From: a candidate division WOR-3 bacterium | GTDB taxonomy: Bacteria; Hydrothermota; Tepidihabitantia; SM23-42; JAOAFX01 | DNA length: 64,000 bases | Assembly: GCA_965649105.1 (NCBI GenBank) | Contig: CBFGJP010000001.1 | Coordinates: 14,464 to 78,463 of the forward strand | Direction: 5' to 3' | In this document: positions 822-37,735 of the stretch, one piece after another | Position numbering within the stretch: the stretch's first letter is position 1 | Layout of the letters: every line of letters starts with the position of its first letter | Translations under genes and position numbers: made by a program | Notes under the pieces: model-generated | What the model was told of the DNA's origin: nothing | What the model saw: the letters and a program-made list of their open reading frames with translations, nothing else | Database searches by the model: none

Positions 822-1988
822 CTACTTGATAAACACTATCCTTCTCATTTTATTACCAGGGGTCTTTATGAAATATACACCCGTATTGAGAGACCTATCA
901 GGTTTCCAGATGCCTGGAATAACTATTTCGGCAATCTTCTTTCCGGTAATATCAAAAATCTCTGCACCACGATCTTTTCCGATTATTCTCAAGGATTTGG
1001 TAAATGGATTGGGATAGACTGAAATATCATATTCTCTATCATCTATCTTTTTCTGTTCTTTCACTCCAACCCCTTCATATCGGACTTCAACCGTATCCAT
1101 TGTAGGATGTCCTTTTATGGAATCTCCAAAACAATAATGATAATTCCACGATGTTGTATCATTTCTCAAGTAGCGCTGGAAGAATGCGGTCATATGCCGG
1201 CGGGCAATTCTTTGTTGTTCAGCGCGGGTTATAGTTGCAGTTCCACCGTTTTCCCAAGAATATGAATAGTCCATAAAGTATCCATGATTTGCCCCATGGA
1301 TAACGGCGAATGTGCCGGGTGCTGGTGCATTCTGCCAGTATGCAGTGCGGACATCATTCCAGGGTGCAATATTATCAACTGAACCTGCGATAATCATCTT
1401 CGGTGTTATCAGGTGTTCGGAATGGGTTGCCGGTGTTGTCTGGGGACTTGCCAGTGATACGACTGCCCTCAGTGTATCAACGAGTTTAAATGTATCAGCA
1501 GCAAGAAGTGCCAGGCCACCACCCATACTGTGTCCGGTAAATCCCCATTTGAATCGTGCGAGTTTGTTATAAAAAATATCAGTTGAGACGGTATCCCTGC
1601 TTGCAGTCCAGCGCGCTGCGTCCATCATTGAATGTGCACGGGTATAGTGTTCAGGTGTTGGAAATGGATTGGAAATGGTGGGCAGGACTACAACATAGCC
1701 CCAGGATGCAAGATGCTGTGCATAACTATAATACCGGTCAATACCCATCTGGAATCCATGACCAAAGATGATTATCGGACAGGGCACAGCAGAAGGATTC
1801 ACCTGTCCCCCTGAAGAAGGATAATAGATCCGAGAGTTGTTCATTGTCTCATAGAGACCAGGGATATTTTCGGTCCGGTAAGAGACGGTTGGAAATGGAC
1901 CGGTAGTATCATAATCCGGATACTGGGAAAAGATTGGTTTAATAAATAAAAAGAGAACAATTAACACAACAAAAATAAATTTTCTCAT
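822..1988 (-). CDS. secreted alpha/beta hydrolase, cutinase/PETase-like (dienelactone-hydrolase-type) esterase with T9SS C-terminal sorting domain
   Basis: N-terminal signal peptide. GHSMGGG nucleophile elbow as in Thermobifida cutinases and Ideonella PETase (GHSMGGGG/GWSMGGGG). Downstream Asp and a His in the HGANHGYF region. Last ~80 aa form a T9SS CTD (…GVYFIKTPGNKMRRIVFIK). Confidence 0.6.
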   Translation of the reverse strand: MRKFIFVVLIVLFLFIKPIFSQYPDYDTTGPFPTVSYRTENIPGLYETMNNSRIYYPSSGGQVNPSAVPCPIIIFGHGFQMGIDRYYSYAQHLASWGYVVVLPTISNPFPTPEHYTRAHSMMDAARWTASRDTVSTDIFYNKLARFKWGFTGHSMGGGLALLAADTFKLVDTLRAVVSLASPQTTPATHSEHLITPKMIIAGSVDNIAPWNDVRTAYWQNAPAPGTFAVIHGANHGYFMDYSYSWENGGTATITRAEQQRIARRHMTAFFQRYLRNDTTSWNYHYCFGDSIKGHPTMDTVEVRYEGVGVKEQKKIDDREYDISVYPNPFTKSLRIIGKDRGAEIFDITGKKIAEIVIPGIWKPDRSLNTGVYFIKTPGNKMRRIVFIK

Positions 1989-1997
1989 AGTCGCCCC

Positions 1998-2513
1998 TCA
2001 ATATTCAACGAGGGAAAATATTTCATAATCTCTTAGTTTCTCGGTGCCGCTGAGATAGGTTAAATTGGCAATGAAGGCGCAGGCAATCACCTTACCACCG
2101 AGGGTCTCCACAAGTTTGCACGCCGCAAGCATCGTGCCACCGGTCGCAAGAACATCATCAAAAAGCAATACCCTCTCTCCTTTTTCTATTCCATCTTTAT
2201 GTATCTCAATGGTATTCTTCCCGTATTCTAATTCATATTCCATTTTTACGGTCTCTGCAGGCAGTTTGCCGAGTTTGCGCACCGGCACAATACCACAGCC
2301 AAGGTTATATGCAATAGCACCACCAAAGATATAACCCCTTGCCTCAATGGAAACAACCTTATCAATCTTTGCATCTTTGTATTTATTAACAATCGTATCA
2401 ATGGAGTATTTAAACGCCTCCGGATCTTTCAATATTGTTGTTATATCACGAAACATAACTCCTTTTTGGGGAAAGTCAGGGATATCGCGGATAAATCTCT
2501 TAAGTTCCATCAA
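1998..2513 (-). CDS. apt: adenine phosphoribosyltransferase
   Basis: 171 aa. PRTase motif VLLFDDVLATGGT. Typical Apt N-terminus (LKRFIRDIPDFPQKGVMFRDIT). Confidence 0.85.
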   Translation of the reverse strand: MMELKRFIRDIPDFPQKGVMFRDITTILKDPEAFKYSIDTIVNKYKDAKIDKVVSIEARGYIFGGAIAYNLGCGIVPVRKLGKLPAETVKMEYELEYGKNTIEIHKDGIEKGERVLLFDDVLATGGTMLAACKLVETLGGKVIACAFIANLTYLSGTEKLRDYEIFSLVEY

Positions 2514-2569
2514 ACCTCCTTACACTGATTATATATAACTAATGGAAATTGTCAATTTTCAGTCAGATT

Positions 2570-4159
2570 TTATCTTATTAAAATAAATTTGCCATTTATG
2601 CCTTCTTTTCTGATGAAATATACACCTTCAGATAACGAAGAAAGGTCTATTTTTATACTGTGATGACCGGAACTCAAATTTTCGGTCCTGATCTTTTTTA
2701 CAACCCGACCCTCGGCATTATAAATAGTAACTGTGCTGCTTTCATTTATGTCGATTTCAAGTAAGATATCTTTAGAAGCGACATTCGGTCTTATCATTGG
2801 TAAGACGACAGTATTCACCCTGCGGTTTTCTTTCGCACCAACATTTTCTACTACCCCAACGTATGTATCCTGGTTGCCATTCCTTGTATCAGTCCAGATC
2901 GGTATTGTATTTCCCTTTGAAGCCGCTGCGAGGCCATTATATTCACCAATCAAACCAGCCCTTTGGTCAACAAGGGGCTTATTTGGGTTGTAAGGTTCAA
3001 ATTCAGCAACCGAACCTGCCCTTAAATCAAAAGAGACATTGGTTACACGCACATTAGGAAGCCAGGTATTTCCTCCATCAGTTGATTGAGCAAGATATAC
3101 ATCACAGAGGATATTGTTGGGGTCATTTCTTGAATCGTAAAAAATCACAGAAATGCATCCTGTGCGGTCTACAGTGAGCCAGGGATGAAACTGGTCTATA
3201 TGATTTCCAATAGGGTCATCATTTATTCTGACCTTTTGACTCCAGGTATTTCCTCCGTCTGTGGAACGGGTAAAAAACATATCTGGATAGCCATCAATTC
3301 CATTGTCCATATAGGCAATATAGATATAACCCCGGTATGGCCCATTAGTTATATCAACATCCATAGCAGGATAGGAGAATGTCATTATCGTTCCCTTAAC
3401 ATAACGATTCATTGAGGCAATACTTTGGACTGTTTTATCGGTTCCAAATGAAAGACCACCATTTGTGGAACGGTCAAACTTTATTGAATTGTAAGTGCAC
3501 CAGGCAACATAAACCTCACCGTTTGGACCAACTGCGGGCACCGGCCATTGGAGATTTCCCTGTGTGTCACTAATTTGAATCGGGGTTGACCAGTTATAAC
3601 CCTGGTTGGTTGAACGGGTGAAATATATTGCCGGTGTGGAAAAATTAAGGAACCTTGCCCAGGCAACATAGAGATAACCACGATATGGGCTATTCGTTCT
3701 ATCACAGGCAATCAGTTCTTTATCTTCAAATACATTTTGAACGCCGTTCACCACGGTCCTCGGCAAACTCCAGGTGAGCCCTTTGTCGGTTGACTGGAAT
3801 AGAAAAAATCCGTTCGGTTGGGAAGTTGAATTAAAAGATAGAACTATCGCATAAAAATTGCCATCAGCATCAACCGTCATTCCCGGATCAGAATCCCAGT
3901 TATAGGTCGGTTCAACAAAAAGGGTCTCCGCAATCCAGGTTCTTCCTCCATCCAGTGATGCTGCATGACCAACCTGACGGTATCCGACACGAAAATCCCG
4001 CCAGTTCGCAACCAGATTTAAGGTATCATTAGGATTTATCACAATTTGTTGTTCATTCTGAATCTGGGTTGTGTTGTCGGTATTGACTTTGATGTTAAGA
4101 AAACCCTCGCTGAATAAAAGATGACAGAGCATCGCAATAAACGCAACAATTTTAATCAT
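2570..4159 (-). CDS. BNR/Asp-box repeat protein (sialidase/sortilin-like beta-propeller) with T9SS C-terminal sorting domain
   Basis: Signal peptide. Multiple S-x-D-x-G-x-T-W Asp-box repeats (SLDGGRTW, STDKGLTW, STNGGLSF, STDGGNTW x2). C-terminal T9SS CTD (…GVYFIRKEGINGKFILIR). Confidence 0.65.
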   Translation of the reverse strand: MIKIVAFIAMLCHLLFSEGFLNIKVNTDNTTQIQNEQQIVINPNDTLNLVANWRDFRVGYRQVGHAASLDGGRTWIAETLFVEPTYNWDSDPGMTVDADGNFYAIVLSFNSTSQPNGFFLFQSTDKGLTWSLPRTVVNGVQNVFEDKELIACDRTNSPYRGYLYVAWARFLNFSTPAIYFTRSTNQGYNWSTPIQISDTQGNLQWPVPAVGPNGEVYVAWCTYNSIKFDRSTNGGLSFGTDKTVQSIASMNRYVKGTIMTFSYPAMDVDITNGPYRGYIYIAYMDNGIDGYPDMFFTRSTDGGNTWSQKVRINDDPIGNHIDQFHPWLTVDRTGCISVIFYDSRNDPNNILCDVYLAQSTDGGNTWLPNVRVTNVSFDLRAGSVAEFEPYNPNKPLVDQRAGLIGEYNGLAAASKGNTIPIWTDTRNGNQDTYVGVVENVGAKENRRVNTVVLPMIRPNVASKDILLEIDINESSTVTIYNAEGRVVKKIRTENLSSGHHSIKIDLSSLSEGVYFIRKEGINGKFILIR

Positions 4160-6319: not shown

Positions 6320-6922
6320 ATGGATAGAGAAAAGAGAAGGTTACGCGAAGAGATTTGGCGGGTACTGGAAGAGAAAAAAGTTGCCCGATTTCCATTGCCA
6401 TTAAAGGACCGAATTCCAAATTTTGAAAATTCAGAAAAGGCAGCACTACTGCTTGCAACACTCCAGGAGTGGAAGGATGCAAAAATCATCTTTGCCAATC
6501 CTGACTATGCCCAGAAACCCGTGAGGGAGATTTGCCTTAAACAGGGAAAGACCTTGATTATGGCAACACCCAAACTGAAAGAAGGTTTTATAAAGATTGA
6601 ACCGCAGAAAGTCAAAGGCAAAGAATATGAAGCATCAACGATTGCGGGTGCATTCAAGTATGGGATAAAAATAAAGGAACTCATAAGACCAGATTTAATC
6701 ATCACCGGTTGTGTTGCAGTTGACAAAGAAGGCTGGCGCCTGGGCAAGGGTGGTGGGTATGGGGATAGGGAGATTTCAATGCATCTTGAGAAGTTCGGCA
6801 GAATCCCTGTAGCAACTACGCTCCATAAATTACAGATTGTTGATAAAGTCCCACACAATAGATTTGATACAAGAGTAGATTACATTGTTACACCAGATAG
6901 CATAATAAAAATTCCCAAGTGA
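6320..6922 (+). CDS. 5-formyltetrahydrofolate cyclo-ligase family protein
   Basis: 200 aa. GKGGGYGDR motif (family GxGGGYYD) and overall 5-FCL length. Confidence 0.7.
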   Translation: MDREKRRLREEIWRVLEEKKVARFPLPLKDRIPNFENSEKAALLLATLQEWKDAKIIFANPDYAQKPVREICLKQGKTLIMATPKLKEGFIKIEPQKVKGKEYEASTIAGAFKYGIKIKELIRPDLIITGCVAVDKEGWRLGKGGGYGDREISMHLEKFGRIPVATTLHKLQIVDKVPHNRFDTRVDYIVTPDSIIKIPK

Positions 6923-6964
6923 TTCTTGACAAATATGTTGTAGTAATTATAATTTAAATTAGCG

Positions 6965-7981
6965 ATGGTTTATTTTTTTATCATTTCTTTCTCTTTAGAT
7001 TGGGGTTACATACCCGTGAAGGTGAATCTTGGATATTCAAATCAGTATATGACAATCGCCCATTTTTCAGCGAGCACGCTGGGGCTGCACAGTGAATTAA
7101 TTACACTCGGTGTATCATTATATGGCCAGGAGAATTTCTTCTATGAACATCGTAATGGTAGAATTAAAACTGATTTTCCAACCTGGGAAGATTCAATTGA
7201 TTTAATAATACGCTATAGAAATCTGTTTTCCCAATATATCTTCAATGCCGAATTACATCCCTTAAAGAGAATACCATTTTTTATAAGAATTGAAGGTTCA
7301 TTATGGGCAAGGGCGAGAATTGACCATTGGATTGTATCAGAGATTATTTCTGAAAATCCAATCAAATTTTATGATTATGCCTTATATGAATTGTATCCTA
7401 AAGGATATAAGAGATTGTCCATAGGTATTGAACCGCTAACATTATTTAATTCTGAGATTTTTGTTGAAGCAGGTATTATGAATATAAGTTATCCAAAAAT
7501 AGATGTGAAAGAAATAAATACCGCATTCAACCAATTATATCTTTCAGTCGGGACAAACTTTCTGCATAAGAGGACAAATAATAGATTGCCCTGGGAGATC
7601 GCGCTTGCCACCGGGATTGATGCGACAGCAACTGGAACCTTCACGCTAACTTATGTCTGGAATGAAAGGTATATGAAAGATTGGCAATTGTCTATACTCG
7701 GTGGTCTATCTGTAGTTTCGGGTGCCGGGTGTGGTTATTTCCAGCATTATGTAAAAAGATTATGGTTAAAACCAGAGGATAAATTCTGGAGTAAAGCATT
7801 AAAAAAGGGTGGGGTGGGACTGGCTTCAGGATTGATCTATGAATTGGCGATGATTTCTGGTTATATATATGCAAGCCGTGATTGGCCCCATAATGGCGAT
7901 TATATGGTGCGTGATTTTGCTTATCTCTCTATTATAAAGATTGTTTTTTTGGGACATTTATTAACAAGTTTGGTATTCTGA
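6965..7981 (+). CDS. hypothetical protein (possible outer-membrane beta-barrel; ends in aromatic residue)
   Basis: 338 aa. Alternating hydrophobic pattern, C-terminal ...TSLVF. No recognisable catalytic motifs. Confidence 0.4.
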   Translation: MVYFFIISFSLDWGYIPVKVNLGYSNQYMTIAHFSASTLGLHSELITLGVSLYGQENFFYEHRNGRIKTDFPTWEDSIDLIIRYRNLFSQYIFNAELHPLKRIPFFIRIEGSLWARARIDHWIVSEIISENPIKFYDYALYELYPKGYKRLSIGIEPLTLFNSEIFVEAGIMNISYPKIDVKEINTAFNQLYLSVGTNFLHKRTNNRLPWEIALATGIDATATGTFTLTYVWNERYMKDWQLSILGGLSVVSGAGCGYFQHYVKRLWLKPEDKFWSKALKKGGVGLASGLIYELAMISGYIYASRDWPHNGDYMVRDFAYLSIIKIVFLGHLLTSLVF

Positions 7982-7986
7982 TATTT

Positions 7987-9264
7987 TTATACGATCTCTC
8001 CAATCGGTGTTCTGCCTTTTATTTTGGTGATGAGGACATTATGGATAGCACCGGGTTTTATCTCCTTTTCTACAATCACATCCTTGTTTCCCCTATTCTT
8101 TCCCCGAGTGCCATTTTCTGTTTTCTCTTCAAATAGGACCTCATAGACCCGACCCAGCATCTGTCCGGTCTTCTTGATGATTATCTCATTTTGAGTATTG
8201 ATGAGAATTTGTAGACGTTTTTTTATAACTTCTTCCGGAAGGGATGGATATTCGCTTGCCCGGGTCCCGGGTCGGACTGAATAGCGATACATATATGCAT
8301 CGTCAAATTCAATCTTTTTTACCAGCTCAATCGTCTCATAGAATTCTTCTTCAGTTTCCGTCGGAAATCCAACGATGATATCGGTCGTGATTGTAGCATC
8401 AGGAAGATTCTCCCTTATTTTTTTAATGATTCTTAAATAATCTTCTTTTGTATATTTTCTATTCATCAACTTTAAGATTCTATTGTTTCCTGATTGTAGA
8501 GGCAGGTGAAACCACTCACAGATATTTTTATTCTCTTTTATCACTTTTATTATTTCATCATCAAAATCTTTGGGATGTGAAGTTAGAAATCTTAACCTGA
8601 ATATGTTTGTTTTCTGGGCAACGAGTTTCAAGAGTTCAGGGAATTTTATTCCATCATAATAATATTCATTTACATTCTGACCGAGAAGTGTTATATCTTT
8701 TACACCGGCTTCAACAAGATGGTTTACTTCTTTAATAATATCTTCAACCGGCCTGGAGCGCAATCTTCCCCGCACAAAGGGGACGATACAATATGAGCAA
8801 TAATTATCGCAGCCGCGGGTTATGGAGACGAAATCGGAAATCTTTTTTGATTTCCTGCATATACCGGCATATAATTCTTTGCCAACTTCGGTCTCAATAA
8901 TCTTGGTCTTTTGATTTGTCAGAACTTTTATATATGCAGGAATTTTTTGGTATGAATCAGGGCCGAGGACAAGGTCAACAAATGGATATCGGGTGATAAT
9001 CTCATCAGCAAGCCTTTTTGCCATACAGCCGACTATGCCGAGAACAATGCCTTTTTCCTCGCGCCATTTTTTTAATGTTGAGATATAACCAAGTGCCCGC
9101 TGTTCAGCGTGTTCCCGGACTGAGCAGGTATTAATGAAGACCATATCCGCTTCGGCAATACTTTCTGCCGGCATACAATTTTCTTCAATAAGAATCTCCT
9201 GTATAATATCCGAGTCATTCTTATTCATCTGGCAGCCAAATGTCTTGATATAGAATTTATACAT
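7987..9264 (-). CDS. miaB: tRNA-2-methylthio-N6-dimethylallyladenosine synthase (radical SAM methylthiotransferase)
   Basis: N-terminal FGCQMNKNDSD (MiaB signature). Radical SAM CSYCIVPFVRG. C-terminal TRAM domain. Confidence 0.8.
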   Translation of the reverse strand: MYKFYIKTFGCQMNKNDSDIIQEILIEENCMPAESIAEADMVFINTCSVREHAEQRALGYISTLKKWREEKGIVLGIVGCMAKRLADEIITRYPFVDLVLGPDSYQKIPAYIKVLTNQKTKIIETEVGKELYAGICRKSKKISDFVSITRGCDNYCSYCIVPFVRGRLRSRPVEDIIKEVNHLVEAGVKDITLLGQNVNEYYYDGIKFPELLKLVAQKTNIFRLRFLTSHPKDFDDEIIKVIKENKNICEWFHLPLQSGNNRILKLMNRKYTKEDYLRIIKKIRENLPDATITTDIIVGFPTETEEEFYETIELVKKIEFDDAYMYRYSVRPGTRASEYPSLPEEVIKKRLQILINTQNEIIIKKTGQMLGRVYEVLFEEKTENGTRGKNRGNKDVIVEKEIKPGAIHNVLITKIKGRTPIGEIV

Positions 9265-12174: not shown

Positions 12175-14310
12175 TTACACTTTGTCAATCCGTAATGAGA
12201 GTTGAAATAATCCGAGACCCACGATAAAATTCAGGATTATAAATAAAACAGAAGTATATAATATCCCAAGTATTGGGATGAAAATCAAGGCAGTAATCAA
12301 TGCCCCGAAACTTGCGCCCAAAAGATCAATCCCATAAAGGATACCCGACTTTTTTTCAAAAAATATGTCTATTACCAATGGGAAATGTAAACCATTTAAA
12401 AATCCCCCGGCTAATAAAAGAATGGCAATGATATAATTTATAAACTCCACCTTCGTAAAAGTACAAATAAAAATTATTAAAAAATAAATGCCTATGGTTA
12501 TTTGAATAGTCGATAAAAAGTTCAGCTTTTTCTGAAGGGTATCTATTTTTCTAAATATTCTCATCTTAATAAAAAACAAAGTTCCCATTGCAAGTCCCAG
12601 CATGAATAAACCTATAATAATACCTATCCAGTTATAAACATATCCATAAAATACTTGAAAGAGAATCAAAAGTACTATCTCAGATGAAATGCCTGCGACA
12701 CCGGTGGTAAATATTGAGAGATAAATAAGCGTTTTGCGATACCAGCAGAAAAGAATGGGAATCAATATTAATAAAAATAAACCCGGATGCATATTGAAGA
12801 GTTTTAAAAATAATTTTTTAACAAATCCTGAAGAAATACTACCCCATAGTAGCACATTGAAATAATAACATACAGGCTTTAAATCGTTGTTAATATAAGA
12901 CTTCGTTCTTTCGATACACTGCTTTATATATCCAATTTTTTCCTCAGTAAGATTGTAATCAAAAAAATAGTTATTTACGTAAAGAAGATTAAGATTTCTG
13001 TCCCTGATATTTTTCTTCAAAATTTCTCTAATTCCAACTTCAATTTCGTAGTCCAGTCCAATATATGTGGCTTTTGATAACGGTAATACATAAACTTTTT
13101 TGAAAACCCTTTCCAATGTATTCTTGATTGTGCCTAAAAATTGGCTATAAATCGGGCTGAAAATATCCGGTGTATAATTGACTCTAATACAGAATATCCC
13201 ACCCTGATTAAGCCTGCCTTTAGATTCCTGGAAGAATTCTAATGTATAATATCTATTAAGATTTGCATTTACCGGATCAGGCAGATTAATAATAATACAA
13301 TCAAATTTTTCTTTGGTATTTTTGATATAGTATCGACCATCGCCGATAATTACATTTAATCTATTATCAAAAATTTGAGAACCAATAAATTTTTTTGAGA
13401 TTTCAATAATCTTGGGATCGAGTTCCAGATAATTCAATTTCTGAATCGATGGATGTTTGAAAATCTCTTGTATGCCACCACCCAAACCACCGCCAATAAG
13501 CAGAACACTTTCAGGATTCTTGTGGATTAACAGCGGATAATGAACCGCCTCTTCCGAGGCATAAAAATCAGGGTACGCAAAGTCAAAAACGCCGTTTGAA
13601 TAAAAGTTGATCTGATCATCCGATTTTGTTAATGTGATATTTCCGTATTTTGATTCAAAGACACCAATAATATTTTGCCCCGGCATCTGCACTTTTTTTA
13701 ACTTAAACTCTATCGAGTTTATAGCCAGAAATAAAAATAAGGGAAGCACGGACAATAACAGGTAAATCTTTTTTCTAATACATAAATAACTGGCGAATAT
13801 TAATAACGAAATGAGCAAAATAAAGATACCCGATGGGGGGATGAAAGATAATAAAACGAAGGATAATATAATACCACCAAAAACAGCACCAAAACTTTCA
13901 AAAAAATACACCCTTTGTGGTCTTATAATTTCAGTAGCAGCAGGAAATAGGGCACCAAAGATGATACAGAGTGGACAAAGCGTAATAAACGCAATAATTA
14001 TTATCTTGTATAAATCAATAACCTCACCAAAGTTTATAGAGAAGATCGCAGGGGCATTCCTTATGAATATAAAAGAGCATACCAAAAACAGTGCGGTTAA
14101 AAAAATAAGATTTGCATAATTTCGCGCCGGGTTATCTCTTAAATTCAATTTTGAATATATGAAACTTCCCAACCCGGTCAACAAAAGCCAGAGAAATAGC
14201 ACAATACCTGAAATCAATTCATTGCCCGAAAAAAATGCGAGCATTTCGCGGATGATCATTGTTTGACTCATAACTGCCGCCATACCCGATATAAAAATTG
14301 CAATGTGCAC
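12175..14310 (-). CDS. fused polytopic-membrane / spermidine-synthase-like (polyamine aminopropyltransferase family) protein
   Basis: 711 aa. Multiple TM helices at both ends. Central PABS-like domain (LLIGGGLGGGIQEI...LELDPKII...GDGRYYI...DCIIINLPDP). Confidence 0.6.
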   Translation of the reverse strand: MHIAIFISGMAAVMSQTMIIREMLAFFSGNELISGIVLFLWLLLTGLGSFIYSKLNLRDNPARNYANLIFLTALFLVCSFIFIRNAPAIFSINFGEVIDLYKIIIIAFITLCPLCIIFGALFPAATEIIRPQRVYFFESFGAVFGGIILSFVLLSFIPPSGIFILLISLLIFASYLCIRKKIYLLLSVLPLFLFLAINSIEFKLKKVQMPGQNIIGVFESKYGNITLTKSDDQINFYSNGVFDFAYPDFYASEEAVHYPLLIHKNPESVLLIGGGLGGGIQEIFKHPSIQKLNYLELDPKIIEISKKFIGSQIFDNRLNVIIGDGRYYIKNTKEKFDCIIINLPDPVNANLNRYYTLEFFQESKGRLNQGGIFCIRVNYTPDIFSPIYSQFLGTIKNTLERVFKKVYVLPLSKATYIGLDYEIEVGIREILKKNIRDRNLNLLYVNNYFFDYNLTEEKIGYIKQCIERTKSYINNDLKPVCYYFNVLLWGSISSGFVKKLFLKLFNMHPGLFLLILIPILFCWYRKTLIYLSIFTTGVAGISSEIVLLILFQVFYGYVYNWIGIIIGLFMLGLAMGTLFFIKMRIFRKIDTLQKKLNFLSTIQITIGIYFLIIFICTFTKVEFINYIIAILLLAGGFLNGLHFPLVIDIFFEKKSGILYGIDLLGASFGALITALIFIPILGILYTSVLFIILNFIVGLGLFQLSLRIDKV

Positions 14311-14685: not shown

Positions 14686-15489
14686 ATGGAAGAAATTCTC
14701 CAAGCAAAGCAGAAAAAGATTGAAAAGTTAAAAGAAATTTTAAAGAAATTTCCGGGCGTGGTAGTTGCCTTCTCTGGTGGTGTTGACTCAACATTTCTTT
14801 TAAAAATGGCGGTAGAAATATTTAAGGACCAAGTTATTGCAGTAACCGCCACTTCACCTCTTTATCCTGAAGCCGAAATCAAGCAGGCAAGAAAGATTGC
14901 AAAACTATTGAATGTTAAACATATCATCATCGGCTCAAATGAACTTATGAATAAGTATTTTAAAAATAATCCGGTCAATCGTTGCTTTCATTGCAAGGTT
15001 GGATTGTTTAAAAAATTAAAAAAAATTGCACAAAAATGTGGATTTATTGTTGTTGAGGCAAGTAATTATTCTGATCTCAATGATTTCAGACCCGGGCTAA
15101 AGGCAGTAAGAAAACTTGGTATCAAATCGCCATTGATAGAAGCGCGCTTGACAAAAGATGAAATAAGATATTTTGCCAGAATGTTTAAATTGCCGAACTG
15201 GAACAAACCTTCAATGGCTTGCCTTGCCTCAAGAATCCCTTACGGTGTAAAAATAAATAAAAAAATTCTAAAACGCATTGAGCGAGCGGAAGCATTTTTA
15301 AAAAAACTAAAGTTTTCTCAATGCCGGGTACGGGACTACTTTCCGATTGCCCGGATCGAAATCCTACCCAATGAATTTTCCCGAATACTTAAGGATAGAA
15401 CACAAATTATTAGATTTTTCAAAAGAATCGGCTACAAATATATTACACTCGATTTGGATGGCTATAAAACCGGCAGTATGAATTTATGA
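14686..15489 (+). CDS. larE: LarE-type PP-loop ATP pyrophosphatase (sulfur transferase of nickel-pincer cofactor biosynthesis)
   Basis: PP-loop AFSGGVDS. LarE-like blocks YRPGLKA, NWNK, CLASRIPYG (Cys at the sacrificial-Cys position) and YITLDLDGYKTGSMN (cf. YVTLDLGGFRSGRMN). Extra CxxC (NRCFHCK). Confidence 0.7.
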   Translation: MEEILQAKQKKIEKLKEILKKFPGVVVAFSGGVDSTFLLKMAVEIFKDQVIAVTATSPLYPEAEIKQARKIAKLLNVKHIIIGSNELMNKYFKNNPVNRCFHCKVGLFKKLKKIAQKCGFIVVEASNYSDLNDFRPGLKAVRKLGIKSPLIEARLTKDEIRYFARMFKLPNWNKPSMACLASRIPYGVKINKKILKRIERAEAFLKKLKFSQCRVRDYFPIARIEILPNEFSRILKDRTQIIRFFKRIGYKYITLDLDGYKTGSMNL

Positions 15490-18704: not shown

Positions 18705-19376
18705 ATTAAAAAAAGATTTAGCAAAACAATAAGCGACATCGGGTTTGCAAAATTAGATCTGCACCGAAAAAATAGAAAAGGATTTCCCGAGGTCATCTTA
18801 TGCCAAGGTAAGTCAGAAGAGCAAATAGTGCAATGTGCGTGGCAGATATTTAAAGCCAATAAAAAAGTGCTTTTGACGAGAATTAATCCATCCATTGCCC
18901 GATCGCTTGATAATGAATTTAAATCAGGCAAATATTATTCTGAAGCCAGATTGTATTTTATTGGTAAACAAAAGGAAAAAACAGGTCTGGTAGTTGTAAT
19001 ATCTGCAGGTACCGGAGATATCCCGGTGGCTGAAGAAGCCGCGGTCACCGCTGAAATTATGGGGAGTAATGTTAAAAGAATATATGATGTTGGTGTAGCT
19101 GGGTTGCACAGGCTCTTAAAATTCAAAAACCTGATAAAAAAAGCGCGGGCCCTTGTGGTTGTGGCAGGCATGGACGGTGTTCTTCCCTCAGTTGTTGGTG
19201 GTTTATTCCCGGCACCGGTAATTGCGGTGCCCACAAGCATTGGATATGGGGCGCATTTCAATGGCATTGCATCTTTATTGACAATGTTGAATTCCTGTGC
19301 GCCGGGTGTAGCAGTGGTTAATATTGATAATGGTTTTGGAGCGGGTTATCTTGCGGCAATTATAAATAGTCTATGA
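18705..19376 (+). CDS. larB: LarB (pyridinium-3,5-biscarboxylic acid mononucleotide synthase, PurE-like); start codon uncertain
   Basis: PurE-like core (VVVISAGTGDIPVAEEAAVTAEIMG ... VVAGMDGVLPSVVGG ... VPTSIGYG). LarB-specific N-terminal block GFAKLDLHRKNRKGFPEVI is encoded in frame upstream of the first ATG (18828). No ATG/GTG/TTG between the in-frame stop at 18666 and 18828. AGGAG at 18693 is followed 7 nt later by ATT at 18705. Confidence 0.6.
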   Translation: MKKRFSKTISDIGFAKLDLHRKNRKGFPEVILCQGKSEEQIVQCAWQIFKANKKVLLTRINPSIARSLDNEFKSGKYYSEARLYFIGKQKEKTGLVVVISAGTGDIPVAEEAAVTAEIMGSNVKRIYDVGVAGLHRLLKFKNLIKKARALVVVAGMDGVLPSVVGGLFPAPVIAVPTSIGYGAHFNGIASLLTMLNSCAPGVAVVNIDNGFGAGYLAAIINSL

Positions 19377-22886: not shown

Positions 22887-25322
22887 ATGGGTATATATTT
22901 GGTTCTATTTTTCTTGTCTGGTTTTTCTGCTTTGATTTATGAGATTACCTGGACAAGATTACTCTTGCTTGCATTTGGTTCAACAACCTTAGCAAATGCC
23001 CTGGTCGTATCAGCATTTATGCTGGGACTTGGTCTTGGCGGATTATATTATGGTTCCTATGTCGATCGGGTCAACAATTCTAAGAAATTATTTTCATATC
23101 TGCAGTTAGGAATTGGCTTATCTTCCTTTTTATTACTGCTTCTCATTAATCAGTTACCAAATTTTTATAAAGGCATATCAAAAAATATACATTTAAACCC
23201 ATCAATTTCATCAACCATTATATTCATTTTAACCTTCGCAGTCTTATTTATTCCTACATTTTTAATGGGCGGGACATTTCCAGTAATTACAAAATGTTAT
23301 GTTCAGGATGAGAATAAAATCAAAAATGGAATAGGATTATTATACGGATTCAATACTTTCGGAGGTACGATTGGTGCATTATTAACCGGATTCTTTTTTA
23401 TCAGAACATTGGGGCTTTCTTCGACCCAGTTGATCGCAATTTTAATAAATTTAATAATCGGCATTTTGGTGTATCTTTTCATTGCAAAAATGTCAACGGA
23501 AAATAGAATTTCAAAAACTGTTCCCCAGGAATCAAAAAAAGATAATTTAAACAAAATAAAAAAATATATGCCACTCATTGCCGGGCTAACAGGGTTTGCT
23601 GGGCTTGCCTGTGAAATTTTATGGATTCGTGCATTATCAATATTCCTTATCAATTCCACCTACACCTTTACTATGATTATTATTGTCTTTCTGTCGGGAA
23701 TTTTTATCGGTAGTATTGTATTTACCAGATTATCAAAAAAATCAAATATCCATAATGTTTTTGCATTAGTGCAAATTCTGACAGGATTATATATCATAAC
23801 TGGCAGTTTATTTTTAAATAAACTACCAGCATTACTATTTTTGTTCTCTAGTATCTTTGAAATACCTACCCTTAGAATGTTCCTACCCGCATTACTTCTT
23901 TCTTGGGTTATAGTCTTTGTACCCGCAATATTTATGGGGATAAGTTTTCCGCTAATTTGTTCTCTATACGAACAGAAAATACCGAACCTTGGTAACTATC
24001 TGGGTAATATTTATTTTTTCAATACAATTGGCAGTGCACTTGGTTCGCTAATTGCTGGTGTGCTCTTAATCCAATATATCGGAGTCATAAGGGGATTGGT
24101 AACTGTTGCTTTTATAAATTTACTGATTGGTTTCTTTTTTACGCTTTCTTTGAAGAAAAAATTTGTATATATCATTATTTTTGTTTGGGCAATCGCCAGC
24201 TTTTTTTATTCAATGCAAAATAAATTAATACTTCCGCCTTCCCTTTACCAGTCACCGAGCAGACAACACCGTGTTTTATTTTATCAAGAAACATTGGATG
24301 GGACTATAATTGTGAGTGAAGACCGTTCCACGGGCATAAGGTCCTGCTATGTAAATAACAGTGCGGTAATCGGCACAACCTATGATGCATTGAAGGTTGT
24401 AAAAATGCTCGGGCATCTTCCGTTCATATTCAATCCTGATGCAAAAGAGATATTGGTCATTGGTTTTGGAATTGGTATAACAACTTCAGCAATTGCACGG
24501 TATAATGTGAACCAAATAGATTGTGTTGAAATTTGTCCGGGCTTGCGTACAGCAGCAAAATATTTTGCAAATTTTAATAACTATATTTTTAATAATCCCG
24601 TAGTAAATTTTATTAACGCTGATGGCAGGAATTTTTTGCTATTAACAAAAAAAAGATACGATATCATTTCCTGCGACCCAACACATCCTATATTGGGAAG
24701 CGGAAGTCTTTATACTAAAGAGTTTTTCATATTGTGCAGGGAGCATCTATCGGATAATGGAGCAGTCTGTCAATATCTGCCCCTTCATAAACTGAGCCCG
24801 GATCAATTTAAATCTTTGATAAAAACCTTCGCTGATGTCTTCCCGCATACTTCAATCTGGCTTGGTTATTCGCATGGTATCCTTGTGGGCACAAATCATT
24901 CCCAAAAGATAATCTTTGAATCATTAAAAAATTTAAACGATGACCTGCTCAAAGATCCATATCTTCTTGCCGTCTCATATCTTCTTGATACAGAGGCAAT
25001 TAGACATTTCACCTCGGGTGCAAAGATAAATACCGATAACCAACCCAGGTTAGAATTTTTTACTCCCTTAAGTTTGAGGAATGAAAACTGGGAGCATAAT
25101 ATAAAATCAGTAATGGAACACAGAATTAGTATTGATAAAATCGTTATTGGCATTGAGGATTTAGAAAAATTGCAACGATATTTGCAGGGACAGAAGTATT
25201 TTATTGAAGGGCTCATATATCAAAACCGAAGAGACCGACAGTCAATGATCGAGGCGTTTAAAAAATCATTGGCAGTAAATCAAGAAAATAACGAAATAAG
25301 GCTATTACTTCAATCGCAATAA
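22887..25322 (+). CDS. fused polytopic-membrane / spermidine-synthase-like protein with C-terminal TPR region (paralog of 12175..14310)
   Basis: 811 aa. About 12 TM helices in the N-terminal half. PABS-like domain (ILVIGFGIGITTSAIA...IDCVEICP...FINADGRNF...DIISCDPTHP). TPR-like C-terminus. Confidence 0.6.
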   Translation: MGIYLVLFFLSGFSALIYEITWTRLLLLAFGSTTLANALVVSAFMLGLGLGGLYYGSYVDRVNNSKKLFSYLQLGIGLSSFLLLLLINQLPNFYKGISKNIHLNPSISSTIIFILTFAVLFIPTFLMGGTFPVITKCYVQDENKIKNGIGLLYGFNTFGGTIGALLTGFFFIRTLGLSSTQLIAILINLIIGILVYLFIAKMSTENRISKTVPQESKKDNLNKIKKYMPLIAGLTGFAGLACEILWIRALSIFLINSTYTFTMIIIVFLSGIFIGSIVFTRLSKKSNIHNVFALVQILTGLYIITGSLFLNKLPALLFLFSSIFEIPTLRMFLPALLLSWVIVFVPAIFMGISFPLICSLYEQKIPNLGNYLGNIYFFNTIGSALGSLIAGVLLIQYIGVIRGLVTVAFINLLIGFFFTLSLKKKFVYIIIFVWAIASFFYSMQNKLILPPSLYQSPSRQHRVLFYQETLDGTIIVSEDRSTGIRSCYVNNSAVIGTTYDALKVVKMLGHLPFIFNPDAKEILVIGFGIGITTSAIARYNVNQIDCVEICPGLRTAAKYFANFNNYIFNNPVVNFINADGRNFLLLTKKRYDIISCDPTHPILGSGSLYTKEFFILCREHLSDNGAVCQYLPLHKLSPDQFKSLIKTFADVFPHTSIWLGYSHGILVGTNHSQKIIFESLKNLNDDLLKDPYLLAVSYLLDTEAIRHFTSGAKINTDNQPRLEFFTPLSLRNENWEHNIKSVMEHRISIDKIVIGIEDLEKLQRYLQGQKYFIEGLIYQNRRDRQSMIEAFKKSLAVNQENNEIRLLLQSQ

Positions 25323-28422: not shown

Positions 28423-29772
28423 ATGAAAAAACAATATAATATAAGACAATTAAAAAAACAGTTGATCAAAGAGGAAATAAAATTCATTGATTTAAAGTAT
28501 TGCACACTTATCGGCACACTGAATCATATCACCATTCCAATTGAAAGATTTGAAGAAATAATTTCCGAAGGGGTTGGGGTGGACGGTTCAAGCCTGCCCG
28601 GTTACAAAGGGGTCCAAAAAGGTGATATGCTCTTGTTCCCGGATTTAAACACCCTTTTTATAGATCCATTTTTTGAAGATAAGACAGTTTCTTTTTTGTG
28701 CAGTGTTTATTTACCTGATAAATGGGTTCCTTACGAACGAGATTCAAGAAATATTGCCAAAAAAGCAACAAATTATTTAAAAAAAGTCCTCAATGCCCAG
28801 GCATTTTTTCAACCTGAACTTGAATTCTATGTTTTTGAAAAATGTACCTATGGCGAAGGACCTGGGTACGGGTATTATCGAATTGCATTTGCTGATGAGA
28901 TAGAAAATAAGATAAACTATCCAATAAGGTATAAAGGTGGATATCATATTGGTCCGCCGGAAGACCGTTACGCCAATCTGCGCAATGAAATGGTAAAAAT
29001 ACTCAATCAATGTGGAATTAAGGCAAAATATCATCACCATGAGGTAGGGGCAAAAGGGCAGCTGGAAATAGAGCTGTTAATGGAACCAATGTTGCAAGCC
29101 GCCGATAATCTATTTCTTTCAAAATATCTACTGAAATCTCTGGCACAAAGTCGGAATATCTATCTCACATTTATGCCCAAACCATTCATTGGTGAACCTG
29201 GAAATGGCCTTCATTTACATCAATATCTTGGCGAAAAAAATAGCTCACTATTTTATGATTCAAAATCCACGAACAATCTTAGTGAACTGTGTCTAAAATA
29301 TATCGGGGGAATTCTCCAGCATTCAAGGGCACTCTGTGCTTTTACAAATCCCAGCACAAATTCTTACAAAAGATTGATCCCCGGATTTGAGGCTCCAACC
29401 TATACTGATTTTGCCCTTGGAAGCAGAACATCCGCAATCCGTGTTCCCGCATATGTCAGGAACAAAAAAGAACTGGATATAGAATATCGTATTCCTGATG
29501 CAACAAGCAATCCATATCTTGCAATGAGTGCAGTCCTCCTTGCTGGACTTGATGGAATAGAAAATAATCTTAAACCAGATAAAAAAGAAAAATTACCTAC
29601 CAATTCCTATGAAGCAATAAACGCACTTAAGGAAGACCATAAATTCTTGCTAAAAGGCGAGGTATTTAATACCGATCTTATTGAACGATGGATTGAAGTA
29701 AAAACTAAAGAATTTGAAGAAGTCCATTTAAGGCCACACCCTTATGAGTTTAATCTCTATTTAGGAATATGA
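28423..29772 (+). CDS. glnA: glutamine synthetase family protein (type I-like)
   Basis: 449 aa. GS beta-grasp N-domain (GVDGSSLPGY). Catalytic domain motifs (HHHEVGAKGQLEI, RIPDATSNPYLAMSAVLLAGLDG). Confidence 0.75.
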   Translation: MKKQYNIRQLKKQLIKEEIKFIDLKYCTLIGTLNHITIPIERFEEIISEGVGVDGSSLPGYKGVQKGDMLLFPDLNTLFIDPFFEDKTVSFLCSVYLPDKWVPYERDSRNIAKKATNYLKKVLNAQAFFQPELEFYVFEKCTYGEGPGYGYYRIAFADEIENKINYPIRYKGGYHIGPPEDRYANLRNEMVKILNQCGIKAKYHHHEVGAKGQLEIELLMEPMLQAADNLFLSKYLLKSLAQSRNIYLTFMPKPFIGEPGNGLHLHQYLGEKNSSLFYDSKSTNNLSELCLKYIGGILQHSRALCAFTNPSTNSYKRLIPGFEAPTYTDFALGSRTSAIRVPAYVRNKKELDIEYRIPDATSNPYLAMSAVLLAGLDGIENNLKPDKKEKLPTNSYEAINALKEDHKFLLKGEVFNTDLIERWIEVKTKEFEEVHLRPHPYEFNLYLGI

Positions 29773-30776
29773 AAAAAACAATCAAAATCGGAATTGTTGG
29801 TTGCGGGGCTCACGCTCAGATTGCCCACATTCCTGTTTTTAAAAAGAACAATGATTGCAATTTGATCGCATTGTGCGACACCGATACCCAAAAGGTTGAA
29901 CAACTTGCAAATAAGTACAGCATCCCAAAGAGATACGGCGACTTTCAAGAGATGATAGAAGATAAAGAGATAGATGCGTTAGTAATCTCTACACCCAATT
30001 ATCTTCACGCACCCATGACCATCGCTGCGCTGAAATTTGGCAAGGATGTCCTCTGTGAAAACCCAATGGCGATAAGCCTCAACGAGGCACAGGAAGTCGT
30101 GAAAGTTTCCCGGCAGACTAAAAAGCAGGTGGCGGTCGCACTTACGGGCCGATTCAGGCCCGATGTTCAAACATTAAAAAAATTCATCAAGGAAGGCGAG
30201 CTCGGAGATGTATACTATCTAAAAGCCGGATGGCTTTTAGGGATGAAAGAATGGGTCCTTTCTGACTGGCGGTTGGATCTCTTGAAAAGTGGTGGCGGTG
30301 CCTTTTTAACGCTTGGCACCCAGATTCTCGCCATTGCCACCCATTTTCTTGAAGATAAAGAAGTGGATACAATTTTCGGCTCTATGCACAAAAAAGAATC
30401 GGATACAAAAGTGGAAGACACCGCTTTATGTATAATCAACTACAAAGATGGCACCCTGCTTACAATTGAGGTGGGCTGGTCGCTATTGTTTGATAAAGAT
30501 TTTTTATATTGCAATATATTTGGCAGAAAAGGCGGAGCATTACTCAATCCATTAAAAATTCATAAAGAGTTGCATAATGAACTGGTAAATGTTACCCCAT
30601 CGATCCCGGTTAAAAATTTTTATAAGGTTGCCTGTGAGCTCCAGGCACAATTTTTTATTGATGCTATCAGAAAAAATACAAATCCGCCCTTTACTGCTGA
30701 AGATGGATTGTTCGTTGCGCGTGTCACCGATGCCTTTTATGAATCAGCAAATAAAAATAAAATGGTAAAGATTTAA
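29769..30776 (+). CDS. Gfo/Idh/MocA family NAD(P)-dependent oxidoreductase
   Basis: N-terminal Rossmann IGIVGCGAHAQIAHIP. 335 aa. ATGA overlap with glnA stop. Confidence 0.65.
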   Translation: MKKTIKIGIVGCGAHAQIAHIPVFKKNNDCNLIALCDTDTQKVEQLANKYSIPKRYGDFQEMIEDKEIDALVISTPNYLHAPMTIAALKFGKDVLCENPMAISLNEAQEVVKVSRQTKKQVAVALTGRFRPDVQTLKKFIKEGELGDVYYLKAGWLLGMKEWVLSDWRLDLLKSGGGAFLTLGTQILAIATHFLEDKEVDTIFGSMHKKESDTKVEDTALCIINYKDGTLLTIEVGWSLLFDKDFLYCNIFGRKGGALLNPLKIHKELHNELVNVTPSIPVKNFYKVACELQAQFFIDAIRKNTNPPFTAEDGLFVARVTDAFYESANKNKMVKI

Positions 30777-36493: not shown

Positions 36494-37176
36494 TGCCCCT
36501 TTTTATAGTAGCGACTCCGATAGGGAATCTTGAAGATATAACTATCCGAGCAATAAAAACTCTAAATGAAGTAGATCTTATTGCTTGTGAAGATACAAGG
36601 CGGGCAAAGATAATTTTAAAAAAATATAATATTAAAAAGAGTCTGATTTCTTATTATGATCGAATCGAAAAAAAGAGAACACCAGAATTATTAAAATTAT
36701 TAAATGAAGGGAAAAAAATTGCGCTCATCTGCAATGCGGGAACACCTTTAATATCGGATCCCGGTTATGTTTTGGTTAAAGAAGCGGTTTCAAAAAACAT
36801 CCCGGTAATCTCCGTGCCCGGTCCCTCAATACCCATCGCGGCACTTGTGGTCTCTGGATTACCAATTAATCGTTTTATATTTGAAGGATTTCTACCGAAA
36901 AAGAAAAAACAGCGCGAAAAAATTTTTGAAGCATTAAAAACCGAAACAAGACCAGCGATAATATTAGAATCACCACATCGAGTCATTAAAACGTTGAACG
37001 AGATGAGCGCGATCCTTCCGAATAGAAAAATCGTCCTTGTTCGTGAATTGACTAAATATTATGAAGAAATTTTGAGGGGAACAATCGATGAGGTCTTAAA
37101 AAGTCTAAAGACTGATTGTGGAGAATTTACAATAATAGTTGCAGGTAAAGATGAAAAAGATAAAGGCACTGTATAA
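36493..37176 (+). CDS. rsmI: 16S rRNA (cytidine1402-2'-O)-methyltransferase
   Basis: [18 protein letters not shown]...CEDTRR N-terminus. Tetrapyrrole-methylase fold length (227 aa). Confidence 0.75.
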
Positions 37177-37735
37177 GAAAATCTTCCTTTTACCGATTGT
37201 AAATCTCTTTATAAAATTAAATATTGCGCCCAACATTATCACAATATTGAGTTTTATTATCGCAATATTTGCCTTTTTTGCTTATCAAAATGGCGTTTTC
37301 TGGCTCGGTGGCATTATTTTATTTTTCAGCAGTATCCTTGATACATTTGATGGCGAAATTGCTCGTCAGACAAATCGGGTCACAAAATTTGGCGGATTTT
37401 TGGATTCAACGCTTGACCGGGTGAATGAATTTTTAGTTTATCTTGGATTATTTTTTTACTATTATCATCGTTTGGATTTCGTTCTTTACTGGATTCTATT
37501 TGCCCTGTTCGGTTCACTAATGGTCAGTTATACAAGGGCGCGAGGTGAAGGTGTTGGAATATCACCCCAGGTTGGCTTATTTGAACGATTTGTAAGACTA
37601 TTATTTTTAATACTTGGCTCCTTTGGAGGACCTCAGATTATGATTTATGCTCTGATCGTTATTGCCGTAGGATCATTTATGACATCGCTCCAGCGTATTT
37701 TATATCTATTCAATAATTCAAAGTCTGCGGATTAG
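37139..37735 (+). CDS. CDP-alcohol phosphatidyltransferase family protein
   Basis: [28 protein letters not shown] matches D-G-x2-A-R-x8-G-x3-D-x3-D. Multiple TMs. Start may be an internal Met (about 37151). Confidence 0.65.

Follow-up and report, generated by a model that had tools for sequence, protein, structure and literature searches.

A putative exported esterase from candidate division WOR-3 representing a cutinase-like alpha/beta-hydrolase subfamily with a type IX secretion-type tail

Cutinases and polyethylene terephthalate (PET) hydrolases (PETases), such as IsPETase, LCC and TfCut2, are part of a broad group of alpha/beta hydrolases that also includes chlorophyllases and platelet-activating factor acetylhydrolases (PAF-AH). 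Two PET-active esterases of Bacteroidetes, PET27 and PET30, are exported through a type IX secretion system (T9SS), and consist of a signal peptide, a cutinase-like hydrolase domain and a C-terminal Por domain of family TIGR04183; several other candidates in the same study, whose binding motifs were altered (F-M-A, F-M-Y), showed no activity (PMC8767016). In the study of the M1–M5 motif scheme for PETases, PET degradation was confined to enzymes carrying M5 (Alam et al. 2025, PMC12224614), but GlacPETase, HaloPETase1 and enzyme 101 are PET-active despite the lack of M5, and GlacPETase has been described as PET-active in two reports (PMC12976661, PMC13234336). According to review text, only Bacteroidota and some other phyla of the Fibrobacteres-Chlorobi-Bacteroidetes (FCB) group are listed as having a T9SS. 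Here we describe an open reading frame (ORF) at positions 822–1988 of a stretch of 64,000 nucleotides (the window) from a candidate division WOR-3 bacterium (assembly GCA_965649105.1, contig CBFGJP010000001.1, positions 14,464 to 78,463), which combines features of cutinases with features of chlorophyllase and PAF-AH. Nothing relevant to a PET hydrolase in WOR-3 was found in the searchable literature.

The ORF is complete, and its product runs from a signal peptide through an alpha/beta-hydrolase domain and a linker to a T9SS-type C-terminal domain (Table 1). An exact copy of the 388-residue protein is present once in NCBI-derived data (P0001). The AlphaFold2 model, built on 58 homologues, has a mean predicted local distance difference test (pLDDT) score of 93.9, and comprises a signal helix (residues 2–20), the alpha/beta-hydrolase domain, a disordered linker (309–317) and a C-terminal beta domain of seven strands (322–386). 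We consider it likely that the gene encodes an exported serine carboxylesterase of an uncultured, probably thermophilic WOR-3 bacterium (referred to below as the esterase), and its physiological role would most likely be that of an extracellular scavenger. The protein represents an uncharacterised subfamily of cutinase-like alpha/beta hydrolases with a T9SS tail, named so far only from uncultured FCB-related phyla.

Table 1. Positions in the window of the esterase gene, its encoded domains and motifs, and its upstream region
Feature	Position	Strand	Evidence or remark
Complete ORF, 388 aa, ATG start	822..1988	minus	ORF list; stop codon 822-824
N-terminal Sec-type signal peptide, residues 1-21 (MRKFIFVVLIVLFLFIKPIFS)	1926..1988	minus	Sequence inspection; modelled as single helix 2-20
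Catalytic alpha/beta-hydrolase domain, residues 22-308, PF12740 family	1065..1925	minus	
Flexible linker, residues 309-317 (VKEQKKIDD)	1038..1064	minus	Sole segment with pLDDT <50
T9SS type-A C-terminal sorting domain, residues 318-388	825..1037	minus	TIGR04183, PF18962, predicted strands, G349
Oxyanion-hole motif H77-G78-F79 (within GHGF 76-79)	1752..1760	minus	Alignments; F79 aligns with Y87 of IsPETase
Nucleophile elbow G-H-S154-M-G-G-G, residues 152-158, catalytic Ser154	1515..1535	minus	Alignments
Loop S181-P-Q183-T-T-P after strand beta6	1431..1448	minus	HMMER and MAFFT alignments
Catalytic Asp205 in G-S-V-D-N-I-A-P, after strand beta7	1374..1376	minus	Aligns with D206 of IsPETase
Catalytic His235 in G-A-N-H-G	1284..1286	minus	Aligns with H237 of IsPETase
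Aromatic-rich insertion directly after catalytic His, about 18 residues (G236-YFMDYSYSWENGGTATIT)	1227..1283	minus	Alignment blocks, conservation
apt-like phosphoribosyltransferase gene, directly upstream of esterase	1998..2513	minus	Pfam Pribosyltran 63.9 bits
Sigma-70-type promoter consensus TTGACA-16 nt-TATAAT just upstream of apt	2528..2555	minus	Promoter scan

The catalytic triad is intact. In an alignment of 49 family members, S154, D205 and H235 are invariant and align with S160, D206 and H237 of IsPETase, in agreement with the patterns G-[HW]-S-M-G-G and D-x-[IV]-A-P. M155, the second oxyanion-hole residue, is found in 47 of the 49 members. The GHSMGGG elbow and the downstream Asp/His arrangement had already been pointed out in a preliminary description made from the sequence alone, which was right on the sequence content; the elbow is identical to that of LCC and TfCut2, the Asp and His are at the cutinase triad positions, and the match to this group, judged by the scores below and by the invariant triad, is far beyond chance. 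In full, the elbow reads SMGGGL, with G, S or A at position 158 and L, I or C at position 159 across the family.

The GHGF region, which the same description had counted as a further match to cutinases, turned out to be of another type. Cutinases have PGY or PGF at this place and GlacPETase has GGF, while HG[F/L] is the motif of chlorophyllases and PAF-AH; H77 and G78 are invariant in the family, and position 79 is occupied by F, W or Y. The same affiliation is seen directly after the catalytic His, where the alignment blocks reveal an insertion (H-G-Y-F-M-D240-Y-S-Y-S-W-E-N-G-G, with D240 invariant) that is present in chlorophyllase and PAF-AH, but absent from cutinases and PETases; it is modelled with short helical turns. 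The discriminating feature is the position of the catalytic acid, since the family uses the cutinase position (D205) and not the site after beta6 that carries the Asp of chlorophyllase and PAF-AH, with which S181 is aligned. To judge from these alignments the active site is a mosaic, with a cutinase-like elbow and acid position, and an HG oxyanion motif and post-His insertion resembling those of chlorophyllase and PAF-AH.

The mature esterase has just two cysteines, C70 and C286, neither of them in the C-terminal strand. C286 aligns with C273 of IsPETase, albeit without a C-terminal partner, and is absent in 18 of the 49 members. The two cysteines occur together in 26 members, neither is found in 12, and 11 have one without the other; a C70–C286 disulfide would clearly not be universally required in the family.

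The preliminary description had placed the protein in the cutinase/PET-hydrolase branch, and this assignment stands as far as the best Pfam family and the nearest folds are concerned. Of the 12 Pfam families matched, PF12740 (PET hydrolase-like) ranks at the top (53.5 bits against a cut-off of 28, E-value 3.1e-14, residues 28–236). Lower scores were obtained with DLH (32.7 bits, cut-off 21) and Chlorophyllase PF07224 (29.5 bits, cut-off 26), the latter matching only profile positions 42–131, i.e. 90 of 301; PAF-AH PF03403 scored 16.5 bits, under its cut-off of 20. In a phmmer search against the PDB, GlacPETase was matched with an E-value of 1.9e-11, and numerous variants of IsPETase followed with values around 1e-9 to 1e-8. 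When the profile of the 49-member family was searched against the PDB the best match was PET30 (7pzj), and all 60 top matches were cutinases or PETases. With the catalytic-domain family profile, scores decreased from IsPETase (49.8 bits), LCC (41.0 bits) and TfCut2 (40.6 bits) to the chlorophyllases of wheat (32.3 bits) and Arabidopsis (28.3 bits), and finally human PAF-AH (16.8 bits). A second reference ranking (figures as listed) was led by GlacPETase (33.7), followed by the cutinase of T. fusca (30.4), the P. mendocina lipase (30.2), Mors1 (30.2) and PET30 (30.1), and below these chlorophyllase (27.9), PAF-AH (27.3), a Streptomyces feruloyl esterase (26.0) and dienelactone hydrolases (about 22). 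Foldseek agreed with this ranking, with GlacPETase and IsPETase as its top matches, and the nearest solved folds are those of the cutinase/PET-hydrolase group. Sequence identity to the reference PETases and cutinases is 20–24%.

The part of the assignment that did not hold concerns the tree, in which a position within the clade of characterised PET hydrolases was not obtained. Neighbour-joining trees were constructed from Kimura-corrected distances over 161 or 261 aligned columns with 200 bootstraps; PET30 was included as a partial sequence and PET27 was left out. Of the reference sequences of IsPETase, LCC, TfCut2, AtCLH1 and human PAF-AH, that of PAF-AH was confirmed to be identical to PDB 5i8p over residues 47–429, AtCLH1 was confirmed as a chlorophyllase homologue (E-value 3e-87 to 8fjd), and IsPETase residues 47–237 could be compared by eye with the variant alignments from phmmer. 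The esterase family forms a clade of its own with 100% bootstrap support, nested in none of the PETase, chlorophyllase and PAF-AH groups. Grouping of the family with the PETases received 2–3% bootstrap support, and grouping with chlorophyllase/PAF-AH 0%. Because these trees give no resolution at the deep nodes, no sister group is assigned to the clade, and the statement that it is closer to cutinases rests on the scores and fold similarity. The chlorophyllase/PAF-AH placement that the preliminary description had named as the contrary outcome was not found, as the family has its own clade and its triad Asp and His lie at the cutinase positions. Membership of chlorophyllase or PAF-AH, a candidate assignment prompted by the HG and post-His motifs, was rejected on acid position, elbow, scores and tree. 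By sequence comparison the esterase is best regarded as a member of the broad PET-hydrolase-like/cutinase/chlorophyllase/PAF-AH group, within a subfamily of its own.

About 95 protein clusters with 41–88% identity to the esterase were found. Named sources are the uncultured candidate division WOR-3, Aegiribacteria, Fermentibacteria and Latescibacteria, to which genome loci add Coatesbacteria and UBP2, and one family member carries the automatic UniRef label 'PET hydrolase/cutinase-like domain-containing protein'. Some members deviate in domain composition. Four longer proteins of about 666–669 residues (P0079, P0081, P0083 and P0089) have some 300 Ig-like residues, with a weak match to the Rha78A-N Ig domain, between the hydrolase and the tail, and in the nearest outgroup, P0096 (484 residues, 33% identity), a type I dockerin replaces the T9SS tail.

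The kinship with cutinases does not extend to most hallmarks of PET binding. No regular-expression match was found in the esterase for the M4 motif [PG]-G-[YF], which is H-G-F instead, or for the DxDxR(Y)xxFxC motif, where the esterase reads RNDTTSWNYHYC; the four-glycine run S-M-G-G-G-G of M2 is likewise not matched, being S-M-G-G-G-L. The published M2–M5 filters are failed, and the Met following the catalytic Ser, which is part of M5, is the sole element retained. The aromatic-clamp Trp after beta6 (W185 of IsPETase; Trp or Tyr in PET27/PET30) is absent, and its place is taken by Q183 in a loop with no aromatic residue anywhere; P182, Q183 and P186 are invariant in the family, the loop pattern being S-P-Q183-[TS]-x-P. 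Also absent is the conserved C-terminal disulfide (C273–C289 of IsPETase). In the alignment with IsPETase, LCC and TfCut2 that the preliminary description had proposed as a check, the triad was recovered, but not the PG-type oxyanion motif or this disulfide.

These differences bear on whether the esterase is a genuine polyesterase of the cutinase/PETase kind, breaking down PET or related aromatic polyesters on the cell surface in the way of PET27 and PET30, which we regard as unlikely. It is only 20–24% identical to any PET-active enzyme and lies outside their clade, the invariant Q183 stands where a Trp would stack on terephthalate, and part of the cleft may be covered by the roughly 18 residues inserted after the His. 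PET degradation in the study of Alam et al. was limited to enzymes with M5, and altered binding motifs went together with inactivity in several of the Bacteroidetes candidates. A polyesterase function would, in turn, agree with the PET hydrolase-like Pfam family as best match, with the PET-active GlacPETase as nearest solved structure, with the architecture shared with PET27 and PET30, and with F79, M155, H153 and I207, which correspond to cutinase subsite residues; PET-active enzymes without M5 are known, and a thermophilic origin, as predicted, would suit PET hydrolysis. Since most PET-binding hallmarks are missing, we interpret the protein as an uncharacterised esterase of an ordinary kind, and not as a probable PETase. 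In view of the HGF motif, the clade position, Q183, the missing disulfide, the post-His insertion and the failed M2–M5 filters, the label 'polyesterase candidate' in the preliminary description was overstated, and describes a possibility rather than the best-supported reading. PET activity of the esterase is possible, and if synthetic polyesters are hydrolysed at all, this would be a side activity.

By inspection, the signal peptide of the esterase has a basic n-region (MRK), a hydrophobic core of 13 residues and a small residue at position -1 (IFS|Q), with cleavage predicted before Q22. A Gln at +1 is found in 37 of the 49 members, in accordance with the 'Q-rule' of signal peptidase I substrates in Bacteroidetes. 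At the other end, the T9SS-type domain noted in the preliminary description scores above the cut-off of NCBIfam TIGR04183 (25.1 bits, cut-off 23) and just under that of Pfam PF18962, and AlphaFold2 predicts seven strands at residues 322–386 with pLDDT >90, a result that refers to the strand count and not to a 3+4 sandwich topology. The tail has YPNPF near its start, GVYF in the sixth strand and a basic C-terminus (RRIVFIK), with a C-terminal R or K in 36 of the 49 members, and the invariant G349 lies between strands 3 and 4; in P. gingivalis, a Gly in the beta3–beta4 loop and an intact seven-strand sandwich are required for secretion of RgpB (PMC11285876). With the family profile, a weak alignment of the tail with PET30's PorC domain was obtained (E-value 0.19 for this domain). 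Every homologue has a C-terminal tail matching either PF18962 or PF13860 (FlgD Ig-like), and homologues are annotated at NCBI as T9SS type A sorting-domain proteins. The parallel with the Bacteroidetes PET-active esterases that had been drawn from the sequence is borne out, as PET27 and PET30 share the Por-type C-terminal domain.

Two more ORFs in the window carry a T9SS-type tail, i.e. a BNR/sialidase-like protein (2570–4159) and a large protein (32327–34783). The latter is annotated as a 706-residue ORF on the minus strand without Pfam or NCBIfam match, but the same frame continues for 112 codons past a single TGA at 32663–32665 (..NNEMW*YIDDF..), and it is this extension that ends in the T9SS-type tail (E-value 1e-17 with our own tail hidden Markov model). 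The in-frame TGA in this large putative surface protein could reflect a pseudogene arisen by a TGG-to-TGA change, a sequencing error or read-through.

Several points weigh against our interpretation. The call as esterase is drawn from homology and the intact triad. The deep branches of the trees are poorly resolved, with at most 21% bootstrap support for any grouping with PETases or with chlorophyllase/PAF-AH. The remaining points concern the tail, which with Pfam PF18962 (Por_Secre_tail) scores 22.5 bits, under the cut-off of 27; no gene for T9SS machinery (SprA/Sov, PorV, PorK/L/M/N, PorU) was detected in the 41 ORFs scanned of the 51 in the window with at least 150 residues; and no report of a T9SS in WOR-3 was found in the searchable literature. 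For the last two reasons we infer the T9SS route of the esterase, and do not derive it from a system in the same genome.

Alternatively, the tail may not be a working T9SS signal in this organism, but an Ig-like/FlgD-like beta-sandwich that serves in adhesion, other sorting or periplasmic retention. This is a separate doubt, compatible with any reading of the substrate. In its favour, many homologues match PF13860 instead of PF18962, and the documented range of the T9SS is confined to Bacteroidota and a few other FCB phyla. We nevertheless find such a role improbable, since the TIGR04183 cut-off is passed, the tail has the seven strands, the YPNPF and GVYF motifs, the basic C-terminus and the invariant loop Gly that P. 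gingivalis needs for secretion, the homologues bear T9SS sorting-domain labels at NCBI, and the same tail is seen on a number of unrelated putative exoproteins, both in the window and at related loci; moreover, 64 kb is too little sequence to exclude the machinery. The tail is borderline by sequence, yet supported overall as a T9SS sorting domain.

We propose the following course of events for the exported esterase, based on the domain order and the motifs described above. The Sec signal peptide would take the pre-protein to the periplasm, and would be removed before Q22. The C-terminal seven-strand domain would then be recognised by a T9SS, by which the folded enzyme would be moved across the outer membrane, to become surface-attached or released. 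In the active site, Ser154 would act as the nucleophile of a classical triad with Asp205 and His235, and the backbone NH groups of F79 and M155 would form the oxyanion hole. Candidate substrates are esters outside the cell that are hydrophobic or bound to polymers, for instance lipids, aliphatic polyesters and cell-wall esters, which would be hydrolysed as part of a secreted scavenging repertoire.

Two narrower substrate assignments can be set against this. In the first, the esterase would act like chlorophyllase or PAF-AH on a single amphipathic lipid rather than on a polymer, removing an acyl or alcohol group; proposed substrates are phytyl or farnesyl esters of (bacterio)chlorophyll, or phospholipids with short or oxidised sn-2 acyl chains that neighbouring cells release. 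Such an enzyme would have been expected to show an Asp at the position of S181 and an elbow of the type GHSRGG or GHSFGG, whereas the esterase has its acid at the cutinase position and the elbow GHSMGGG. The HG[FL] motif is shared with these enzymes, as are an ASxGY/F helix and an H-x-x-F-x-D-[FY]-x-[FY]-type insertion (HQNFADFTF in PAF-AH, HMDMLDD in chlorophyllase), and two polar residues close to the triad that never vary, Q183 and D240, suggest that part of the substrate may be polar. The Pfam Chlorophyllase match is above its cut-off, but extends over less than a third of the profile, and that of PAF-AH is below; profile scores and fold similarity favour cutinases, and the bootstrap value for a grouping with chlorophyllase/PAF-AH is nil. 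For these reasons a lipid esterase of this kind is regarded as quite unlikely. In the second, the protein would be a feruloyl, acetyl or similar carbohydrate-linked esterase, removing ester decorations from extracellular glycans alongside secreted glycan-active proteins. This is very unlikely, because no carbohydrate-esterase family was matched in the Pfam and NCBIfam scans and the linkage to BNR genes is seen in two lineages only and absent from most loci, even though a BNR/sialidase-like gene for a T9SS cargo protein lies two genes upstream, a BNR_2 gene lies ahead of a homologue with 55% identity in a different WOR-3 lineage, the outgroup P0096 carries a type I dockerin in a plant-cell-wall-degrading context, and a Streptomyces feruloyl esterase is among the fold matches.

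Returning to the interpretation as a scavenging exoenzyme, the surroundings of the gene are of limited help. The apt gene ends 9 nt upstream of the esterase gene, with a Shine-Dalgarno-like sequence (GAGGGG) at the junction, across the apt stop codon. The likely promoter upstream of apt scores 12/12 against the sigma-70 consensus, an unusually perfect match that is of interest because promoter types of WOR-3 are uncharacterised, and no terminator-like site was seen on the minus strand between this sequence and position 822. From the perfect consensus and the lack of a terminator-like site, apt and the esterase gene are probably co-transcribed. The adjacency of the two genes is, however, retained in seven close relatives only. 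The closest loci, from WOR-3 metagenome-assembled genomes (MAGs) with 80–86% identity, share synteny with the window that takes in apt, LOG, PCMT, acylphosphatase and MiaB, in keeping with the origin of the window from WOR-3. More distant homologues have as neighbours genes for secreted peptidases of the S8 and M14 families together with a TonB-dependent receptor, or for a BNR_2 protein, or unrelated genes. Apart from apt in the close relatives, no conserved partner gene was seen beside the homologues across the loci compared. The recurrence of exported hydrolases among the neighbours of distant homologues fits a scavenging exoenzyme. A functional assignment based on an operon was rejected, as only the housekeeping gene apt is conserved, in close relatives only, and the distant neighbours are unrelated.

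The BNR/sialidase-like protein encoded two genes upstream of the esterase (2570–4159, minus strand) matches Por_Secre_tail clearly, with 33.4 bits. In the other WOR-3 lineage, the BNR_2 gene directly before the 55%-identical homologue (6578–7999 of locus L085) is a distant relative. The linkage of BNR and esterase genes may be weak.

Amino acid composition points to growth at elevated temperature. The IVYWREL fraction of 47 ORFs in the window (18,087 residues) is 0.423, which by the Zeldovich relation corresponds, as a rough estimate, to optimal growth near 61 °C; the (E+K)/(Q+H) ratio is 3.4 and the GC content about 37%. The isolate names of the closest MAGs may point to samples from hot springs. 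The host lineage is probably a thermophilic, low-GC member of WOR-3.

Other genes in the window are mentioned for completeness. Two unusually large proteins with spermidine/spermine synthase domains are encoded at 12175–14310 (minus strand, 711 residues) and 22887–25322 (plus strand, 811 residues), the second being fused to a membrane region resembling the major facilitator superfamily, and both may be membrane-bound polyamine synthases. Homologues of LarE and LarB, for synthesis of the nickel-pincer cofactor of lactate racemase-type enzymes, are found on the plus strand at 14686–15489 and 18828–19376; between them lie a chromate-transporter-like gene, an ORF without family match and a Memo/AMMECR1 fusion. 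A CDP-alcohol phosphatidyltransferase (37139–37735, plus strand) matches best to archaetidylinositol-phosphate synthase (154.7 bits, below the cut-off of 180) or phosphatidylinositol-phosphate synthase, which suggests inositol phospholipid synthesis, and an inositol 2-dehydrogenase-like gene is present at 29769–30776. A 338-residue ORF (6965–7981, plus strand) without Pfam match has a strongly conserved counterpart (E-value 1e-140) at the syntenic site of a related MAG (L081), and its hypothetical product is probably located in the membrane. Scans with Rfam and for tRNAs revealed three tRNAs and nothing else in the window.

There is a slim chance that the clade constitutes a distinct type of surface-exposed, thermostable and disulfide-independent esterases with a hybrid active site, perhaps depolymerising polyesters including PET near 60–70 °C without a Trp clamp. 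If true, these enzymes would provide a new scaffold for plastic recycling, and would have a natural role on microbial or plant polyesters in hot springs. A PET-active member would mean that the canonical Trp clamp is dispensable, and, being a disulfide-free enzyme of thermophilic origin from an uncultured phylum, would widen the narrow sequence space of PET hydrolases. Whatever its substrate, the esterase is a worked example of why PETase function should not be concluded from a match to the Pfam family 'PET hydrolase-like'. It also draws attention to the occurrence of T9SS-type tails on several putative exoenzymes of WOR-3, a division for which the searchable literature yielded no T9SS report.

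Compared with the known enzymes, plasma PAF-AH (Lp-PLA2; PDB 5i8p, 3d59) shares with the esterase an N-terminal GPY...YYPS hairpin and an SHGLG...ASHGF block, and its post-His segment H-x-x-F-x-D-F-x-F resembles H-G-Y-F-M-D-Y-S-Y of the esterase; in contrast, it has a triad of the S273/D296/H351 type, with Asp296 at the beta6 position, and large lipid-interface insertions. The chlorophyllases of wheat (PDB 8fjd) and Arabidopsis (CLH1) likewise have HGF followed by an ASHGY-type helix, and an acidic residue in the post-His insertion, but differ in their GHSRGG elbow, in profile scores below those of the cutinases, and in being plant intracellular enzymes without a Por tail. Their catalytic Asp, according to mutagenesis literature that of I-D-P-V, directly follows beta6.

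IsPETase, LCC and TfCut2 resemble the esterase in fold (target TM-score about 0.8), triad positions, the Met after the catalytic Ser and the Ile after the Asp. At 20–22% identity, the esterase differs from them by HG in place of PG, the lack of equivalents of W185 and of the C273–C289 disulfide, and a catalytic domain that is about 25 residues longer. GlacPETase (PDB 8x6v), a divergent enzyme from a glacier metagenome and the best single-sequence match in the PDB, agrees with it in the catalytic triad (Ser-Asp-His), in the elbow S-M-G-G-G and in having an aromatic residue at the place of Y87, and likewise lacks M5; its GGF, GFSMGGGG and aromatic clamp (APF, against SPQ in the esterase) set it apart, and identity is 23%.

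The closest overall resemblance in organisation is to PET27 and PET30, the latter being the best PDB match of the family profile, with both domains aligning. Like the esterase, these enzymes (F-M-W and F-M-Y) have a Phe at the first position of the binding motif. They are 22% identical to the esterase and possess PGF, GWSMGGGG, a Trp or Tyr clamp and one C-terminal disulfide, where the esterase has HGF, GHSMGGGL, a Gln at the clamp position, no such disulfide and a post-His insertion, and the partial PET30 sequence falls into another clade of the tree. The comparison documents a well-conserved, uncharacterised subfamily that stands between the cutinases and the chlorophyllase/PAF-AH enzymes.

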